Assembly (NCBI GenBank): GCA_005223125.1
Contig: NJBH01000010.1
Location: 1 to 64,000, forward strand
Length of the DNA stretch: 64,000 nt
Direction of reading: 5' to 3'
DNA from: Promethearchaeota archaeon Loki_b32
Lineage (GTDB): Archaea > Asgardarchaeota > Lokiarchaeia > Sigyniarchaeales > SOKP01
This document shows, piece after piece, positions 51,808-60,295 of this stretch; position 1 is the first letter of the stretch, and each line of letters starts with the position of its first letter. The notes beneath the pieces were generated by a model. It made no database searches, had not been told where the DNA came from, and worked only from the letters and a program-made list of their open reading frames with translations. The translations under genes were made by a program, and so were the position numbers.

Positions 51808-54207
51808 CTAAATGGATTTCTGTTTACTTTTGAATTTTGTATATAATGCTTTATCTAATAAACGACCAATTTTAATAGCAATTTGATTTCCAATTTCATA
51901 CCTTTCTCCATCGATTAAATTTCTTTTTTGTTCAGCAGTGGGAATTTTTCCCAGTCTCTTCATCAAAGTTTTTTCAATAATATTATTTACAATCTCCATA
52001 ATTTTCTCGTTATCTGGTAATTTAATCTCTGAAGTGAAATTCCTAATTTTTTCCATAGCAAAATTAAAAAATTGGCTGATCAATTCAACTGGATCTCCTC
52101 TTAATTCACTATGAAGTTTTATATTATCAGTAGCTATTTTTGTATCTTTTTCTTGCCAATACAACTGATTTGGATTAATCCCTGGACTATTTATTCTCAT
52201 TAGGGAACTTGTGATTCTGCGTTCAATCCAATTTAAAGTACTTAATTCTTGTTCCTCACGGAGTTTTTTAGCTTTTTCTTCTTTTTCTTTCTCTTTAGAC
52301 TCAATGATGCGTTCTACTTCTGATTTCCGGATTTCTTCAAACTTTTCAAATCGTTTAATTATATCATATCCTATACAATATGAAATTGGAGATATTAAAT
52401 CAGATTTCAACTTTAATTGAGCAATATCTTCATATATTGGACTAGGTTTGTTTTTTAATTCAGAACTTGCTTCTTTTAAAGATATTTCCATGAGTCGTGC
52501 TAAAATGAATCCATTAACTAAAAAGGGTTGGTTATTTGCGTTAAATACAGTAACTAATTCTTCTTGTCTTCTAATTAAACGTTTTATAATCAATTCTTCG
52601 AGTTTAATTTTAATCCAATCTTCTGAATCAGTAGTTCCATCTATTTTCTTTAATGCTAATAAATATAAAGATCTATCATTAGAAACCTTAAGATATAATT
52701 CTATTATCCTACTTAGTTGTCTCAATATCTTTGATAAAATATAAAAGAAAATATCTTTTGCTAATTCATTTATAATCTCGTCAAACTCTAAAATAAATAA
52801 TAATTGAGAATAATTTTTTAATTTTAATTCATCTAAAAAGACTTTATCAATGGCTTGTTTTTTTCTAATGTATTGCCTTAGATTATTTATAGTTATTCCT
52901 GTTTTCTCTTCCAAAATTCTTGGTAAATTCGGATATTTATCAATGTCTTGATTTATAAGGTTTAATAGGCCAAATTCAGAGGTTGCGTTTGATTCATCAA
53001 CAATATCTCTAAGATCTTGAAAATTTAACTGAGATAATGCTTTTTTTGCTACAAATATTAAATTCTTTTTATTGTCATTTAAAGATACAATATCGAGTTT
53101 CTTAATATTATATCTTACCATATTTCTTTTCACTTTTTCTGCAAGATCTTCATCCACATTAAAGAAATGTAAAATATTATACACTCCATATTTTTGTAAT
53201 GTGTAGATTATATCATCAAAACCACATTCATTTATACATTGTAAAAAATAGATGAAATCATTTGGATTTTTTTTTAATTTTTTAATTAATACGAATTTTA
53301 AAAAGTTTAAAATTTTTAATTCGAATTGATCATAATCTATTTTTTCTTTTAGACCATCTTCAATTTTTTTTATTAAGTCTTTTTTTAGGTTATTCGCCTC
53401 TATAAATGTATTCAAACCGGGGATAGATATCGGAAATCGGTCTAAATTGAAATCTAGTACCTTTCTTTTTATCATTCTTACTGGCATTGCTTCAATTTGT
53501 AATTCTTTATATGATTTAAATTCAAAATCAGTTTGTGTTTTATTGATTAATCGATCTAAAGTTGCTAATTCGATGAATTTATCTTCTTTTTCCTCTAATT
53601 CTAATTTCTTCTCTAATTCAACAGAGATGTCCTTAAAAGCAGCAGTTTCTTCTAATATTTCCTTTTTTATTTTATTACTTAGACCTATCAAATCACCTAT
53701 TAAATCATAAAAGTAGAATGGGGGATAATTCCTTATGATTTCTTGTAACTCTTGTTCAATTTGAACCTCAATGTCTTTAATCATTTGTTCTTTTTGAATC
53801 TCTTGGGTTTTTTCATTTCTTACTTCAATTAAAAAAGATATAAATTTATTCTCTAAATCAATTATCTTATTGAGAAGATTAACTTCTAAATTTAAAGAGT
53901 TTTTTAATATTGAGTTAACCTCCTCAATTAGGATCTTTTTTTCTGCAATCTCTAAATTTTTAGTGGAATCGAAAGTAAATTTATCCATATCTAAGAGTTT
54001 CTGAACTCGAATTCCTAAACTGTGATAGATATGAATAGTAGCGGTAGCTATTAACAAATCATTAAAGTTAGTTTTCTGACTAATAAGTTCAAAGATTTTA
54101 TTTTTATCAGCTTCCCTTTTAAAATGAGAAATTATTAAATCAACAGTCTGAAAAAATCTAAACGTACTTTCAACTGCTGTTGTTTTTCTTTTTACTCCAC
54201 TAATCAT
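51808..54207 (-). CDS. Large helical hypothetical protein
   Basis: 799-aa ORF; ATG overlaps upstream TGA (ATGA at 54204-54207); no motif recognised. Confidence 0.75.
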   Translation of the reverse strand: MISGVKRKTTAVESTFRFFQTVDLIISHFKREADKNKIFELISQKTNFNDLLIATATIHIYHSLGIRVQKLLDMDKFTFDSTKNLEIAEKKILIEEVNSILKNSLNLEVNLLNKIIDLENKFISFLIEVRNEKTQEIQKEQMIKDIEVQIEQELQEIIRNYPPFYFYDLIGDLIGLSNKIKKEILEETAAFKDISVELEKKLELEEKEDKFIELATLDRLINKTQTDFEFKSYKELQIEAMPVRMIKRKVLDFNLDRFPISIPGLNTFIEANNLKKDLIKKIEDGLKEKIDYDQFELKILNFLKFVLIKKLKKNPNDFIYFLQCINECGFDDIIYTLQKYGVYNILHFFNVDEDLAEKVKRNMVRYNIKKLDIVSLNDNKKNLIFVAKKALSQLNFQDLRDIVDESNATSEFGLLNLINQDIDKYPNLPRILEEKTGITINNLRQYIRKKQAIDKVFLDELKLKNYSQLLFILEFDEIINELAKDIFFYILSKILRQLSRIIELYLKVSNDRSLYLLALKKIDGTTDSEDWIKIKLEELIIKRLIRRQEELVTVFNANNQPFLVNGFILARLMEISLKEASSELKNKPSPIYEDIAQLKLKSDLISPISYCIGYDIIKRFEKFEEIRKSEVERIIESKEKEKEEKAKKLREEQELSTLNWIERRITSSLMRINSPGINPNQLYWQEKDTKIATDNIKLHSELRGDPVELISQFFNFAMEKIRNFTSEIKLPDNEKIMEIVNNIIEKTLMKRLGKIPTAEQKRNLIDGERYEIGNQIAIKIGRLLDKALYTKFKSKQKSI

Positions 54208-56510
54208 AAATCACTCACCCATTCTCTATATACTTCTTTAAAATTATTTGATATTTCGAATCTAGCATTATTATGCCAAAATTTAAAATCTATTATGTGA
54301 AATAAATCACCCTTAAACTGTTCTTTTTCTTCATTTGTTAAAATATGCTTTAGTGTTACTGTTAAAGGTCTTGGAATTAATTTTGAAAAATATTTTTGTT
54401 CAGTATTTTTAACATAATCATAAAATGTCTCAGCCCCATCTAGATTAAAATAATTGAAAGGAAGAGTATTCTCTAATTGTGGATTTAAATTATCTAATTC
54501 ACTTTTAACATTTATTTTAACGTACTTCGGAAATTCGGTATTGATATCAATACTTAGTTCAAATTTTTTATAGAATTCAAATAACAAGTTTTTTTCTTCA
54601 GAATCAGTTATTTTTGCTATATATACATTCAAAAATTTTAGGAAATTTTCAATTTTTTGTTCATTTAATTCTCTCTCTTCAAAATATCCAATAAAATCAT
54701 TGTAGACTTCTGTCAATGTCCATTTTCTTTGTTCTTCCGGTTTTAGATATTTCTTAGAATAATCTTTAATCCAATCAAGAATATAAAATTTCCATTCAAG
54801 ATTTATACCTCCAATTCTCTTTTCTAAAAATCTATGAAATCTATTTGAAAAAGTCACAGGATCACTGATTTCTTTATCAGGTTCCTCCTTAATATAGCGA
54901 TTTATTGTAGAGTGCCTTAAAACATAGCTTATTAAATAATTTAATTCTCTTGAAAATTTCTTAAATTTATCTATATGAATATTTATTTTATTTATGCTTG
55001 TTTCCATCTGGATCTCGGTAAAAGATACTAAATCATCTATCTTTAATTCAATATCATCAAAGAAAGTATCAATATTTTCATTAATTAAGAAATAAAATTC
55101 TTTAATTATCTCTTTTTCATTAAATATAAGATTTTTTTCAAGAAGAATTGAATGTGTTTCAATTTGGTTGAAAAGAGATTCTTTAAATTCACTTATTAAT
55201 TTCTGTCCTAATATTTTTGCTGGTTTTTGTTCTAAGTTAAATTTTGCATATAAATTATTCATTAATTTTATAGTTAGAGATTTCAATCGACGATAAGAAA
55301 GATATTTTGGCAGTGATATTTTAACTAAATTAAGACTTTTAGTGATAATTTCTGAAAAATAACTAAAAATAGAACTCAATTCTATAATTCGTAAACTTTC
55401 TTTTTGAGTTATTGTTTGTTCGATAAATCTTTTTGCTATATTACATATATTTTCGAAATCTTCGTTTTCTAATTTTCCTTTACTCAAAATAAAATGAATG
55501 TATTTAGTTAGTAATTCGTTTAAATCCCCCATTTCTCCTGTACTCAGAAAAGCTCTAGAATATTCCAAAAATTTATTTAAATATCCTTGTAAATTAATTA
55601 TCAATTTATTTACATTAGAAATTAGCCATTCTGCTGTATGAGCATCACTATATTCATTTATTTTATTGTTAATATTATTAATAATAAAAATTATTATTTC
55701 ATCTTGGGATTCATCTAAAGTACCTGTGTTTGCTAAATTGATGAGATTAGTTCCTAAATTTAAAGTTTTATCTACGATAAAATTCGCACTTGGTTCTGAT
55801 ATTGAATACTTAAGATGTTCAATAGCTTGTTGCCCGCTAAATGGTGTTTTAATCTTTTGAAACTTAGGTTTTGAAAAAATAATCTCCATAGGTTTTTTAT
55901 ACCATAAAATCTCAACATTAGAGATGACTTTTGCATATGTATTCAACATATCCTTTTCTGTAGGGAGAGTTCTGCTTAAACCAATCAACTTTTTATTCCA
56001 TTTGTCTTCAATTAGTTCTCCATAGAGTTTTTTACTAAATCTAGAAGCATATTTGTTATATACTAATTGCTTTTCCTCATTTTTTAATTCTGGTCGATCA
56101 GAAAATTCTTCTACCTCAAAAAATAATTTACTTATGTTATTAAGTGATTCTCTAGATTTATGAATGTCTAATACTCCTGTTTCTGGTTTTAAAGCAAGTA
56201 ATAAACTTTCACAATCTTTAAATTTGCCTGGAATAAAAATCATTGATTGAGGGTATATGTTAATTCGAGCACTTTTTTCATCTATATTATATAGTTCAAA
56301 CTCAATACTAAACAACTCTGCTCCCGTGTAATCCCGTAATATTGCATTATACATGGTCAAGAATTTAATCACTTCTTGGGCAAGTTCATTTACTCTTTTT
56401 CTTGTTAACCTTCCTGGACCAATTACATCTCCAGCAATAACATCATTAGGAGACGAATATCCGAATATTATTGAAAATTGGTAACTTATTGATTCGCGTG
56501 TTGTTATCAT
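54204..56510 (-). CDS. Large hypothetical protein
   Basis: 768-aa ORF translationally coupled to next gene; no motif recognised. Confidence 0.75.
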   Translation of the reverse strand: MITTRESISYQFSIIFGYSSPNDVIAGDVIGPGRLTRKRVNELAQEVIKFLTMYNAILRDYTGAELFSIEFELYNIDEKSARINIYPQSMIFIPGKFKDCESLLLALKPETGVLDIHKSRESLNNISKLFFEVEEFSDRPELKNEEKQLVYNKYASRFSKKLYGELIEDKWNKKLIGLSRTLPTEKDMLNTYAKVISNVEILWYKKPMEIIFSKPKFQKIKTPFSGQQAIEHLKYSISEPSANFIVDKTLNLGTNLINLANTGTLDESQDEIIIFIINNINNKINEYSDAHTAEWLISNVNKLIINLQGYLNKFLEYSRAFLSTGEMGDLNELLTKYIHFILSKGKLENEDFENICNIAKRFIEQTITQKESLRIIELSSIFSYFSEIITKSLNLVKISLPKYLSYRRLKSLTIKLMNNLYAKFNLEQKPAKILGQKLISEFKESLFNQIETHSILLEKNLIFNEKEIIKEFYFLINENIDTFFDDIELKIDDLVSFTEIQMETSINKINIHIDKFKKFSRELNYLISYVLRHSTINRYIKEEPDKEISDPVTFSNRFHRFLEKRIGGINLEWKFYILDWIKDYSKKYLKPEEQRKWTLTEVYNDFIGYFEERELNEQKIENFLKFLNVYIAKITDSEEKNLLFEFYKKFELSIDINTEFPKYVKINVKSELDNLNPQLENTLPFNYFNLDGAETFYDYVKNTEQKYFSKLIPRPLTVTLKHILTNEEKEQFKGDLFHIIDFKFWHNNARFEISNNFKEVYREWVSDL

Positions 56511-56932
56511 ATTCTAGTTTCATTAACCATATGTAATTCCTAAATTAATAAATAATTGGTTTTAAATATTTAACCCAACTTTAAAAAAATTAAATGGTTG
56601 ATTTAAATATTTTTAAGTTTATAAAGTATTAAAATTTACTTTTGAATTGTATATAAAGTCCTCGTATAAAAATATTATAGTAGGAATGAGATAATTGAAA
56701 AAAAAGCTATTTAACAACATAATTTTTTTAGATTATGCAAAACTTGAAGTCTGAGAGATATTAAGAATAGAATTTACCGCAAATTTCAAATTTAAGTGAA
56801 TTTATAAACCTTGATTATTAATTTCATATTATCAAGAAAGTTCATGTTTTAAAAATAAAAATATAATAAGAAAAAAATTATTATATTTATAATAATAAAT
56901 ATAAAAGCTAAAAGCACTTAAGGTGTAAGCTT

Positions 56933-57337
56933 ATTCAATTCGGGTCTGATTTAGGAATCAATCAAGAGGATATCGAGAAGATAAGTCCTCAAATTACATT
57001 TATTACCTCTAACGCAGATATTGAAGCGATTGCGCTTGTAAGTTTTGAAGGATATCAAATTGCTTTCTCTGCTTTACCACAATATCATGTTGATGGGGAC
57101 CAATTTTGCGGGCTTGCTAGCGCATTATTAATGACAGGTAGATCTACAATTCAAACTGTATTTCAAGAAGATCTAAGTGAAATAATAGTAAGAGCTGAAA
57201 ATGGATATATTATTATTACAAATGCGGGAAGGTTAGTAATTGTTTGTGCTGGGACTATAATTGATACCCTAATGAAGACTGTAAAAGTTATGAGAATAGC
57301 GGCGAAAAACCTCTATAAAATTTTTGAAAGCCGTTAA
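56933..57337 (+). CDS. Roadblock/LC7 domain protein; probable ATT start at 56933
   Basis: Frame upstream of track ATG (57131) encodes IEAIALVSFEGYQIAFSAL...FCGLASALL, the first half of a roadblock fold; the second half has EIIVRAENGYIIITNAG. Confidence 0.85.
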   Translation: MQFGSDLGINQEDIEKISPQITFITSNADIEAIALVSFEGYQIAFSALPQYHVDGDQFCGLASALLMTGRSTIQTVFQEDLSEIIVRAENGYIIITNAGRLVIVCAGTIIDTLMKTVKVMRIAAKNLYKIFESR

Positions 57338-57500
57338 ATTTAATTATTCATTTTAGTTCCTTTAAAATTCTTGTCTAAGTTTAATTCTAAAGAAAAAATT
57401 TTGAATATTCAAACTATTTTTACCAAATAACAATAGATTTTTATTTATTAATGTATGTATAATTGAAATAAAATAAAGAATTAGTTATTTTTTTGTTATA

Positions 57501-57551
57501 ATGGCAACTGTAAAAAATATCACTTGGCAGTGGCCTTGGCGTTGGCAATAG
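57501..57551 (+). promoter_or_regulatory. Trp-rich leader peptide uORF (MATVKNITWQWPWRWQ*) upstream of trpB2
   Basis: ATG GCA ACT GTA AAA AAT ATC ACT TGG CAG TGG CCT TGG CGT TGG CAA TAG; four TGG in seven codons, 150 nt before tryptophan synthase. Confidence 0.88.
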
Positions 57552-57578
57552 AGCCAATTGCAATGGAGTTTACTTAAA

Positions 57579-57608
57579 TTTATTTTTTCATTTTAATATT
57601 TTTTCTTT
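57579..57608 (+). terminator. Candidate oligo-T terminator within trpB2 leader
   Basis: T6 tracts at 57583-57588 and 57599-57604 between leader stop and trpB2; weak alone because the DNA is AT-rich. Confidence 0.45.
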
Positions 57609-57701
57609 AAATATTAAAACCTCTTTCTAAATGAGCATTAATCATATTGGTCTCCAATATTTTAATGATACACATCTTAAGATGTGAAAAAATGATTAAA
57701 A

Positions 57702-59117
57702 ATGGGAACCAAAATGATGGATTATTATAACGGTAGAATTTTATTACAACCAAATGAAATTCCAAAAGAGTGGGTGAATATTTTACCAGATTTACCCTCA
57801 TCTATGACGCCCTTGATAAACCCAATGGATGGGAAGCCAGTTCCACCAGAAATGGCATTCGCTATATTTCCTAAAGAATGTGTTTTACAGGAAGTTTCGC
57901 AAGAACCTACTATTCCTATTCCTAATGAATTAAGGGAATTTTTTGCTAAAACTTATCGACCAAGTCCACTCCACCGTGCTTTGGGATTAGAAAAAGACTT
58001 AGGATTAGAAGGAGATAAAATAAAGATTTTTTATAAAAATGAATCTGTATCTCCAACTGGATCACACAAACCAAATACGGCAATAACCCAAGCATTTTAT
58101 GCGAAAAAGGAAGGAACGGAAGAATTAGTCACCGAGACGGGAGCAGGGCAATGGGGTTCCGGATTGGCATATGGATGCAATTTATACGAACTTAAATGCA
58201 CTGTATATATGGTAAGAGCGAGTTTTATCCAAAAACCAGGAAGAAAAATTCTTATGAGAATTTATAATGCTGAAGTACATGCAAGTCCTTCTAAATTTAC
58301 TGAATCTGGAAGAAAATTTTTAGAAGAGGATCCAGAGCATGATGGAAGTTTAGGTATTGCTATATCTGAAGCATTAGAACATAGTATGCGAAGTGATAAA
58401 ATTAAATACTCTCTTGGAAGTGTAGTCAATTTTGTTCTTCTACATCAAACTATTATAGGACAAGAAGCAAAAATGCAACTAGCGAAAATAGGTATTGAAA
58501 AGCCCGATATTGTAATTGGATGCATGGGAGGAGGATCTAATTTTTCAGGTTTAATGATTCCATTTGTAAAAGATAAAATCAATGGCGTTCATCCAGATAT
58601 AGAAATAATCGGTGCAGAACCCCGTGCTTGTCCAAGTATTTGTAAGGGAGAATATAGATGGGATTATGGAGATACAGCTATGAAAGGCCCTATTGTAAAG
58701 ATGCATACATTAGGACATACCTTTATACCAACTCCAATCCATGCAGGAGGATTAAGATATCACGGAATGGCACCAATAGTCTCAATATTATACAACAATA
58801 AATTAATTAAAGCAACAATGCATCATCAAACAGAAGTTATAAGAGCGGGAATTAAATTTACTCATACTGAAGGAATAATTCCCGCCCCAGAATCTGCTCA
58901 TGCTATAAAAGAAGCAATTGATCAAGCTTTAAAAGCTAAAGAAAATAATGAAAAGAAAGTCATTCTATTCAATCTCAGTGGTCATGGCTTTTTTGATTTA
59001 TTAGCTTATAAAGAATATATGACTGGAAATCTTGTGGATTATGAATTGCCTACTGAAGAAATTCAGAAAGCCTTAGCTTCTATTGAGATGCCAAAAATCG
59101 ACGATACTCAATTTTAA
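57702..59117 (+). CDS. trpB2: Tryptophan synthase beta chain, TrpB2 type
   Basis: PTGSHKPN PLP lysine, TETGAGQWG, GGGSN, HAGGLRYHG, PAPESAHA, NLSGHG; stand-alone with no trpA adjacent. Confidence 0.96.
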   Translation: MGTKMMDYYNGRILLQPNEIPKEWVNILPDLPSSMTPLINPMDGKPVPPEMAFAIFPKECVLQEVSQEPTIPIPNELREFFAKTYRPSPLHRALGLEKDLGLEGDKIKIFYKNESVSPTGSHKPNTAITQAFYAKKEGTEELVTETGAGQWGSGLAYGCNLYELKCTVYMVRASFIQKPGRKILMRIYNAEVHASPSKFTESGRKFLEEDPEHDGSLGIAISEALEHSMRSDKIKYSLGSVVNFVLLHQTIIGQEAKMQLAKIGIEKPDIVIGCMGGGSNFSGLMIPFVKDKINGVHPDIEIIGAEPRACPSICKGEYRWDYGDTAMKGPIVKMHTLGHTFIPTPIHAGGLRYHGMAPIVSILYNNKLIKATMHHQTEVIRAGIKFTHTEGIIPAPESAHAIKEAIDQALKAKENNEKKVILFNLSGHGFFDLLAYKEYMTGNLVDYELPTEEIQKALASIEMPKIDDTQF

Positions 59118-59224
59118 ATTAAATTTTACTTCGCTTTTTTTTTTAATAAACATTACCAATCAACGAGAAAATCTTAAAATCAAAGAATCTTTTAAATAGT
59201 AAAACCTCTTGAGATTGGCTGTTA

Positions 59225-60295
59225 TTGAACGTTCTTTCAATACTAATTTTGAGTATTTTATATTCTTATGGAATTATACTTCTTTATATAACCTATTTGG
59301 CGAGAAAGAAACGAGAAATGGGTGCATTTACCAATAATTTAGCTAATGCTATAATTCTAATAATTTCAATTACAATTAATGTTATTTTGATTACAGTTTT
59401 TAATCTTTCAGACGAAGAGTTCATAATTTTTCCTTTCAATGCTTTAATGATTGGATTTGTTATAGTTTTTTTTCCTTTGTTTTTTCTTTTTGTTAGACGT
59501 GAGAATATAAAAATAAAAAAACACATAGAGAACTCAAATAAGACTGAAATTCAATCGTTAAAAGAATTACCTCTTAAATATGATATTTATAGAAAATTAA
59601 CTCATTTAGTGGCGCTAGGAGTAATTTTCTTCTATTTTACTCTTGGATTTTTAATCCAAAATGTATTTGTGGATCTACTAGAATTTATTCCAGGATTCAT
59701 TTCCAGAATATTTCAAATTGGAGGTGATATTATGATCTTTACTCAAAATTTAGTTGTATTTTTAGTTGGAATTTCATTAATTGGATTATTAACAGCGGAT
59801 ATTGTAAGAATATTAGCACCAAAGATATATCCTTTGAAGCAAGTCAATCAAATACTACGAGAAAAAGAATTACATTTAAGGTTAGGACCTCATATTTCTA
59901 TGGGGATTGGATGTTTTTCAATCATTTTGCTATATGGTTTAATTCAACCGATAGGGCCTGTATTAATTTGTACTTCGATGGCAATGTCTATTTTTGGAGA
60001 TACATCGTCTAATTTAGTCGGTAGGATGATAGGGCGTAGAAAAATTAGGAAAATAAACAAAACTTATGAGGGATTAGTTGCTGGCATTATTGTCTCCTTT
60101 TTCTCTGGAATCTCAGTATTATATCTACTAAGAAATTTTTATAGTTTCAATATTTTAGGATTGTTATTAATTCCTTTTATAGGAGCAATGATTATTGGTT
60201 TATTGGATTATATAGACTTAGAGATTGATGACAATCTATCTTTTAACTTCTGTTTGTCAACAATATTCTTTACTATTTCGGTTTCATTTTTTTGA
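59225..60295 (+). CDS. CTP-dependent polyprenol/diacylglycerol kinase family (Sec59/Dgk1-like) membrane protein
   Basis: RKLTH, GDTSSNLVG, KTYEG, DDN motifs in a polytopic protein. Confidence 0.8.
   Translation: MNVLSILILSILYSYGIILLYITYLARKKREMGAFTNNLANAIILIISITINVILITVFNLSDEEFIIFPFNALMIGFVIVFFPLFFLFVRRENIKIKKHIENSNKTEIQSLKELPLKYDIYRKLTHLVALGVIFFYFTLGFLIQNVFVDLLEFIPGFISRIFQIGGDIMIFTQNLVVFLVGISLIGLLTADIVRILAPKIYPLKQVNQILREKELHLRLGPHISMGIGCFSIILLYGLIQPIGPVLICTSMAMSIFGDTSSNLVGRMIGRRKIRKINKTYEGLVAGIIVSFFSGISVLYLLRNFYSFNILGLLLIPFIGAMIIGLLDYIDLEIDDNLSFNFCLSTIFFTISVSFF

Follow-up and report, generated by a model that had tools for sequence, protein, structure and literature searches.

A short open reading frame carrying four Trp codons lies upstream of trpB2 in the window (the whole 64,000-nucleotide stretch of DNA that was analyzed), and its conservation in front of trpB2 in related Asgard archaea indicates that it very probably serves as a tryptophan gauge read by the ribosome. 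We consider positions 57501–57713 to be a cis-acting regulatory leader of trpB2, with the translated upstream open reading frame (uORF) as its sensor and ribosome stalling leading to read-through of termination at U-tracts; we judge this reading to have a somewhat better than even chance of being correct. The features of the region are as follows.

57438–57445, + strand: TATA-box-like motif TTTTTATT, candidate promoter of the leader transcript, noted for its conservation in the genus.
57501–57551, + strand: uORF (leader peptide) MATVKNITWQWPWRWQ, 16 codons plus TAG.
57503–57535, + strand: hairpin P1, GGC.ACUG (57503–57510) with CAGU.GCC (57528–57535), pairing codons 2–4 with the first two Trp codons.
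57525–57545, + strand: four UGG Trp codons in W-Q-W-P-W-R-W spacing, candidate ribosome stall sites.
57534–57566, + strand: hairpin P2, core GUUGGC (57541–57546) with GCCAAU (57553–57558), flanked by UUG/CAA and CC/GG.
57578–57628, + strand: U-tract cluster, comprising T6 at 57583–57588, T4 at 57591–57594, T6 at 57599–57604 and CTCTTTCT at 57621–57628, candidate aCPSF1/FttA termination zone.
57591–57619, + strand: hairpin P3, all A-U, UUUUAAUAUUU with AAAUAUUAAAA, z = -6.4.
57636–57667, + strand: hairpin P4, outer helix CAUUAA/UUAAUG and apical helix AUAUUGG/CCAAUAU, the most conserved part of the leader.
57671–57686, + strand: hairpin P5 (helix 6), CACAUC-UUAA-GAUGUG.
57702–59117, + strand: trpB2, the downstream gene, matching NF009057 at 642 bits and TIGR01415 at 588 bits.

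In the window sequence, the MATVKNITWQWPWRWQ frame runs from an ATG at 57501 to a TAG at 57549–57551, with its TGG codons at 57525, 57531, 57537, and 57543. The initial annotation had described a 16-residue uORF with four alternating Trp codons ending 150 nt before trpB2, and all of its coordinates were verified. The trpB2 frame opens with an ATG at 57702, 150 nt past the uORF stop, whereas the start conserved in relatives is the ATG at 57714, at a distance of 162 nt; the latter is preceded by a Shine-Dalgarno (SD)-like GGGAA at 57704–57708, and the relatives possess GGKAA 7–10 nt upstream. A co-oriented Trp-rich short frame (4 Trp in 16 codons) thus precedes a biosynthetic gene by 150–162 nt. 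The absence of an SD before the uORF is ordinary here because an SD-like 4-mer is present at only about 23% of the long ORFs of this genome. The GC fraction was 0.43 at 57500–57559 versus 0.10–0.17 in the flanks, in agreement with the earlier description of a GC-enriched island. Three copies of TTGGC (57524, 57536, and 57542), a single GCCAA (57553–57557), the ATATTGG-TCT-CCAATAT element (57644–57660), and the T6 tracts also were found where they had been placed. When all 44,770 ATG-initiated ORFs of 8–40 residues in the genome were surveyed, 15 contained at least four Trp residues and the MATVKNITWQWPWRWQ uORF was the densest of them; among 2,985 short intergenic ORFs located at most 400 nt upstream of a long ORF, no other packs 4 Trp into 8 residues. 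So large a scan would by itself yield chance cases, and it is the conservation in relatives that excludes a chance ORF.

A Trp-rich uORF with the motif W-x-W-P-W-x-W, ending about 150 nt before trpB2, was present in all 17 same-genus trpB2 leaders. Among 54 distinct leaders of related Promethearchaeota (Asgard) genomes, chosen through TrpB2 orthologues with at least 70% identity, 48 contained such a uORF; these leaders come from metagenome-assembled genomes that are kin to one another, and the counts overstate their independence. Genomes with 80–90% identical TrpB2 are labeled Promethearchaeota or Promethearchaeia (Asgard archaea), which agrees with the proposed Asgard origin of the DNA. Of the six leaders without a typical uORF, three have lost it and keep the downstream hairpins, two combine a short leader with a different upstream gene, and one is degenerate. 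The 48 leaders encode 44 distinct peptides with 3–6 Trp each, the first Trp being codon 9 in 39 of the 44, and in 33 of the 48 leaders the last Trp is the penultimate sense codon. Aligned uORFs differ in length by multiples of 3 nt and vary in their N-terminal residues, and the residues between the Trp are mostly Q, P, and R/C (Q occurs 43 times and P 38 times). Of the 49 leaders in which the TGG repeat is retained, 48 have a frame from ATG to stop that spans all of the TGG codons; over the same span, the other two frames contain 36 and 29 stops in 725 codons each.

The uORF module extends beyond these close relatives and beyond trpB2. A sequence model of the module matched 16 of 25 further genomes of the family, across 5 genera, and the 15 new matches that were inspected comprised 13 before trpB2, one before trpD (genome G069), and one for which no uORF was found. 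The same model gave no match in 126 genomes of other families, a count that does not show absence there since the model is sequence-specific and divergent W-x-W uORFs exist in those families. Other families of the order have longer or shorter uORFs that end in WAW, WPW, or WSW before trpB2 or trpD. In a genome of the same genus (G018), the trpD-C-F-B-A-E-G operon is preceded by a paralogous leader that has a uORF of its own, contains parts resembling P2, P4, and P5, and retains a remnant of the trpB2 start. The regulatory codons are therefore conserved and tied to one pathway, being found in 48 of 54 leaders, before trpDCFBAEG, and before trpD in G069. The earlier proposal of a TrpL-like leader had named the lack of a Trp-rich uORF upstream of orthologous genes as evidence against it; the uORF proved to be present in 17 of 17 same-genus leaders, in 48 of 54 leaders overall, and before a trp operon as well. 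Among the distant TrpB2 loci L079–L102, most of them labeled bacterial or non-Asgard archaeal, a similar uORF was seen only in two Chloroflexi and one archaeon.

Several of these loci merit separate mention. Two Chloroflexi metagenomic loci, L086 (1385–1435) and L088, carry the 16-codon uORF MSTMSWAWPREGHAQP before a trpB2 with a product of about 55% identity. This uORF is equipped with a Shine-Dalgarno sequence (GAGGAGG) and stops 66 nt short of trpB2; directly after its Trp codons comes the hairpin GCCCC-GCGA-GGGGC. Its W-A-W-P segment resembles Asgard leaders from outside the genus (e.g., NWAWPRRE in L018), a likeness that could have arisen by convergence or through shared ancestry combined with gene transfer. 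Within the family, one genome (G158, contig C50) has trpB2 in two copies that lie about 14 kb from each other and share 77% and 81% identity with the query; both are preceded by a Trp uORF leader of their own (68859–68949 and 83325–83412; L127 and L137).

Comparison across the 48 leaders also supports a conserved RNA fold. Paired cells amounted to 76.8% of the alignment versus 36–51% with the partners slid, the fold having been derived from the window's own sequence, which favors this score somewhat. The covariation score was 0.166 versus 0.04–0.08 for the slid partners and was reached by none of 500 shuffles; the whole leader gave z = -3.3. The initial annotation had called for a search for covarying stems, and compensatory or both-side changes were found in P2, P3, and P5. 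P1 (helix 1) was paired in 85.8% of cells over the 48 leaders, with a register that differs by lineage (CACU/AGUG in group 2, GCCAA/UUGGC in L003). P2 (helix 2) has Trp codons 13 and 15 in its 5′ strand and the UAG stop in its loop, and folds at -12.6 kcal/mol with z = -1.9. Its variants include a compensatory GUGGC/GCCAC in L007 and G.U pairs in L004 and L005; in group 2, the helix takes a shifted form of 7 bp. For P1 and P2 alone, z was -1.1 and many shuffles fold as well. The 63 nt around the uORF stop averaged -14.0 kcal/mol versus -5.8 kcal/mol for control intergenic short ORFs. The overlap of the regulatory and stop codons with a conserved helix, seen here in P1 and P2, recurs as a layout in distant leaders whose sequences are unrelated: there, too, a stable hairpin starts at either the final Trp codons or the stop codon. 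The suggestion that three TTGGC copies compete for the one GCCAA was partly right, in that the last copy forms the conserved P2 with GCCAA.

None of 200 shuffles folded as well as P3 (helix 3), for which both-side changes were seen at 10 of 11 pairs (e.g., UUCUAAU/AUUAGAA in L007 and AACAUU/AAUGUU in L015). P4 is marked by the conserved nucleotides GCATTAA, ATTG, and TCCAAT; its helices 4 and 5 were paired in 88% and 77% of cells, with G.U variants as read on the + strand, and its core occurs once in the genome. P5 showed both-side changes at 5 of 6 pairs, such as CACAUU/AAUGUG, and distant lineages keep a hairpin of different sequence at this site. Together, P4 and P5 gave z = -4.1. Three loci that lack the Trp uORF (L038, L042, and L071) keep P4, P5, the U-rich stretch, and a similar leader length, and L071 still has the P2 3′ strand and CATTGGA. 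Because P4 and P5 are kept in three lineages that lost the uORF, they probably have a function of their own. That they form a second promoter with operators appears less likely, the + strand G.U variants and the sequence-divergent hairpins favoring RNA.

The same observations bear on whether the TGG repeat is read as codons at all. It could instead be an RNA site for a TRAP-like protein or a DNA operator for a TrpY-type repressor, with the ORF being incidental. Such a site would fit the near-invariance of TGGCAGTGGCCTTGG in the leader alignment, which extends to third codon positions, the palindromic nature of TTGGC-N6-GCCAA, and the survival of the likewise palindromic P4 and P5 in lineages without the uORF. 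Pairing in P1 and P2, however, accounts for the nucleotide-level constraint on the repeat, and a non-coding site would leave unexplained why an ATG at fixed distance, the open frame, in-frame length differences, and a stop after the last Trp are all retained while the N-terminal sequence varies. Non-Watson-Crick variants in the leader helices are largely G.U on the + strand, which favors RNA over DNA palindromes. TRAP (MtrB) leaders have 9–11 (G/U)AG triplets separated by 2–3-nt spacers, as opposed to 3–6 repeats in the leaders compared and only four UGG triplets in this one, and no match to the TRAP family PF02081 was found in the genome by a search that recovered the B. subtilis control. We therefore regard a non-codon role of the repeat as highly improbable.

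Still less credible, in our assessment, is a TnaC-like arrest in which the nascent W-Q-W-P-W segment would act together with free tryptophan to halt the ribosome close to the stop codon, making high tryptophan the condition that changes expression. The strong conservation of the Q and P spacers and a stop one codon past the last Trp are in keeping with this idea, as is the slowness of proline as a substrate for peptide-bond formation, but P1/P2 pairing explains why the CAG and CCU codons are conserved, and W-x-W is all that other families retain. The uORF shows no evident similarity to TnaC. Arrest of the TnaC type is associated with a catabolic or inducible downstream gene and a conserved Trp/Asp/Pro arrangement of the peptide; here, the downstream genes are anabolic, for which induction by high tryptophan would be senseless in the case of either trpB2 or a trp biosynthesis operon, and the 16-codon uORF contains no Asp.

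Reading of the UGG codons by the ribosome agrees with the genomic setting of trpB2. In this 4.13-Mb genome (29.9% GC, 95.5% complete), no match was found to trpA, trpC, trpD, or trpE by searches that were each positive in all 14 control genomes, and TrpB1 was not found either. TrpB2 therefore stands alone and most likely serves indole salvage, and the earlier suggestion that it is biosynthetic or indole-salvaging fits these absences. With no other trp gene found, TrpB2 would be the tryptophan-supplying step worth regulating, and its predicted role in indole salvage fits a gene gated by Trp codons.

The genes around the leader and trpB2 provided additional observations. Upstream, a gene on the + strand at 56905–57337 shows conserved synteny with the leader; its frame is open from about 56905 with the first ATG/GTG/TTG at 57131, the GTG start of the closest relative lies about 30 codons earlier, and no Pfam family was found for the 68-residue ORF. 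Farther upstream, on the - strand at 51808–56510, two adjacent ORFs of 799 and 768 residues overlap by 4 nt; neither has a Pfam family, and the 768-residue ORF has no NCBIfam family. Downstream of trpB2, a membrane protein gene at 59225–60295 (+ strand) without a Pfam or NCBIfam family occupies the same position in at least 40 relatives (57–79% identity), and its product weakly resembles the CTP-transferase 1 and dolichol kinase families by a feature-based match (score 0.91). A T10 directly after the trpB2 stop (about 59135–59144) suggests that this gene is on a separate transcript.

We infer that the leader is made as one transcript, that the uORF is translated, and that termination is the regulated step, with tryptophan scarcity as the inducing state. 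Transcription is predicted to start near 57466 on the basis of the TATA-like motif, at which TTTTTA is invariant in 17 same-genus leaders with variable flanks, and the leaderless trpB2 loci L052 and L060 have a similar TTTTTAT about 70 nt before the ATG. A genome-wide search of TATA positions for placing the transcription start gave no positional peak. If charged tRNA-Trp were scarce, the ribosome would stall on one of the four UGG codons, where it would cover the P1 3′ strand and the P2 5′ strand so that P2 could not form; RNA polymerase would then pass the U-tracts (57583–57604 and 57621–57628) and yield full-length trpB2 mRNA. With plentiful tryptophan, the ribosome would reach the UAG in the P2 loop and depart, P1 and P2 would fold, and transcription would end in the U-tracts, probably with the involvement of aCPSF1/FttA. 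Translation-coupled tryptophan sensing, as had been proposed for this site, is well supported by comparative evidence, namely the conservation of the uORF, its occurrence at two kinds of trp loci, and the hairpins over the Trp and stop codons.

Termination as the regulated output is favored by the hairpin at the last Trp and stop codons, by the density of U-tracts, and by the presence of aCPSF1 (FttA) in the genome (876 bits). Runs of T4 or longer number 2.85 per 80 nt after the uORF stop in the 48 leaders versus 1.32 upstream of genes genome-wide, and at least three such runs occur in 67% versus 15%, respectively. In archaea, the efficacy of termination is reported to be determined jointly by aCPSF1 and U-tracts, with the same behavior seen for a Lokiarchaeota orthologue (PMC8716108). 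There is no classic GC hairpin with a U terminator, as the initial annotation had recognized, and a cluster of U-tracts is found instead. Other observations count against termination: no U run directly follows P2, the first T6 lying 20 nt after its base, and U-tracts are common in DNA of 30% GC and persist in lineages without the uORF. To our knowledge, hairpin-dependent termination or pausing has not been established for archaeal RNA polymerase. Neither a column-pair scan nor manual inspection revealed a conserved alternative helix that would provide a mutually exclusive antiterminator and intrinsic terminator; lacking both this pairing and a U run adjoining P2, the leader departs from bacterial four-segment logic. 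A simple uncoupling (polarity) model involving FttA has the wrong sign, since starvation would then lower trpB2 expression. On balance, we put the specific proposal of an Asgard ribosome-mediated transcription attenuation, in which the Trp-stalled ribosome decides aCPSF1/FttA termination at the leader U-tract cluster, at slightly below an even chance.

Candidate alternative helices were rejected individually. For a bacterial 2:3 antiterminator, the column-pair scan returned only trivial UUGG/CCAA helices. Pairing of the conserved CAUUGGA (57561–57567) with UCCAAU of the P4 3′ arm was unsupported, with one compensatory change (L002) and disruptions in L055, L053, L017, and L044, and a GCCAAU/AUUGG hairpin is impossible in group-2 leaders.

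The same sensor, stalling on the UGG codons of the uORF, might instead act post-transcriptionally. A stalled ribosome near the 5′ end possibly shields the mRNA from 5′-to-3′ decay, as in induced stability of the ermC type, or it might remodel the leader and alter initiation at trpB2. The comparative evidence for the uORF applies equally to such an output, and no canonical terminator is present; conservation is strongest in P4 and P5, which immediately precede the SD, and the minimum-energy fold of the window's own leader pairs the P4 5′ side with the SD/AUG region. Across the 48 leaders, however, the predicted accessibility of the SD/AUG was 0.43 in the free state, 0.44 with the ribosome stalled, and 0.44 with it at the stop, and a duplex of the P4 5′ arm with the SD gave -2.1 kcal/mol versus -2.2 kcal/mol for shuffled sequences. 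The mRNA-stability version leaves no sequence signature. We consider a post-transcriptional output to be rather unlikely. Masking of the SD by long-range refolding was rejected, as accessibility is constant across states, the duplex equals the shuffled value, and the pairing holds for the window's own sequence only. In this genome only, AUCAUAUUGGUCUCC on the P4 5′ side is complementary to GGGAACCAAAAUGAU of the SD/start region (57641–57655 with 57704–57722), and this pairing takes the place of P4 in the minimum-energy fold of the full leader. The TTGG/CCAA at this site replaces TTGA/TTAA of relatives, and the pairing is not general.

Leaders for other amino acids also were sought in this genome. 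No convincing candidate was obtained for His, Cys, Met, Tyr, or Gln, the top-ranking short ORFs preceding genes without evident tie to the enriched amino acid (those for HAD hydrolase, HD-domain, PPC-domain, and IF-2B family proteins, a 3-hydroxyacyl-CoA dehydrogenase, a ferredoxin-domain protein, and a chaperonin). Phe-rich short ORFs were dismissed as simply T runs. One 10-codon uORF, MHSHSHHKKT (L105; G000:C49:125398–125430), has 4 His in 6 residues and lies 91 nt before a gene for a 376-residue HAD-family hydrolase; some histidinol and phosphoserine phosphatases are HAD enzymes.

Leader-peptide attenuation is the textbook case of a regulatory mechanism relying on the coupling of transcription with translation. 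A full-text literature search, whose coverage excluded most subscription journals, found the class described for bacteria only and returned no archaeal leader-peptide attenuator. If the proposed reading is correct, the trpB2 leader would be the first attenuator of the ribosome-mediated class outside Bacteria, and it would provide direct evidence that transcription-translation coupling serves to regulate genes in the prokaryotes most closely related to eukaryotes, through a termination apparatus akin to that of RNA polymerase II. The conserved leader offers a concrete, mutable test object for asking whether and how the ribosome communicates with the eukaryote-like archaeal RNA polymerase and its aCPSF1/FttA terminator. 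Control by Trp codons and the lack of any other trp gene found imply that trpB2 should supply tryptophan, most simply from scavenged indole, which would be a functional pointer for the long-debated TrpB2 enzymes. The arrangement also gives a simple sequence signature by which leaders that sense amino acids can be sought in other archaea.

Among known systems, tryptophan control in archaea is represented by TrpY of Methanothermobacter, a DNA-binding protein repressor that acts at the promoter. The pathway is the same, whereas the present element is a conserved ORF embedded in a folded RNA, and the likely promoter lies upstream of it. The bacterial trpL-type attenuators (trpL of the enterobacterial trp operon and the leaders of his, leu, thr, and pheA) share with the trpB2 leader a co-oriented short ORF rich in codons for the end-product amino acid upstream of pathway genes, as well as the location of regulatory and stop codons in a strand or loop of a conserved hairpin followed by a U-rich region. 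They differ in that trpL has tandem Trp codons rather than the alternating W-x-W-x-W-x-W, and a terminator/antiterminator pair, for which no conserved counterpart and no GC hairpin abutting a U run were found here; moreover, they operate in bacteria, whereas the polymerase in this case is archaeal and terminates at U-tracts with aCPSF1/FttA, and the regulated gene is a stand-alone trpB2. The Rfam Trp_leader family (RF00513) had no match at E ≤ 10 in 56400–57800 and none genome-wide, while the E. coli control was found; the Rfam search of 56400–57800 gave sub-threshold chance matches only. In attenuation of the E. coli pyrBI type, a ribosome that follows closely keeps a terminator hairpin from forming; the favored model is similar in that ribosome blockage of a single hairpin, P2, would suffice and no antiterminator helix is needed. 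The pyrBI signal is pausing of RNA polymerase at low UTP, whereas the candidate signal in the trpB2 leader is stalling at Trp codons in the 5′ strand of the hairpin, and the leader U run is not adjacent to P2. A preprint describes leaderless polycysteine uORF attenuators of mycobacteria, in which short unannotated ORFs act as sensors for operon expression (bioRxiv 10.1101/834739). These elements are bacterial, sense cysteine, and have another RNA architecture, yet they resemble the uORF of the trpB2 leader in their richness in a single amino acid and in having no Shine-Dalgarno sequence (bioRxiv 10.1101/834739).
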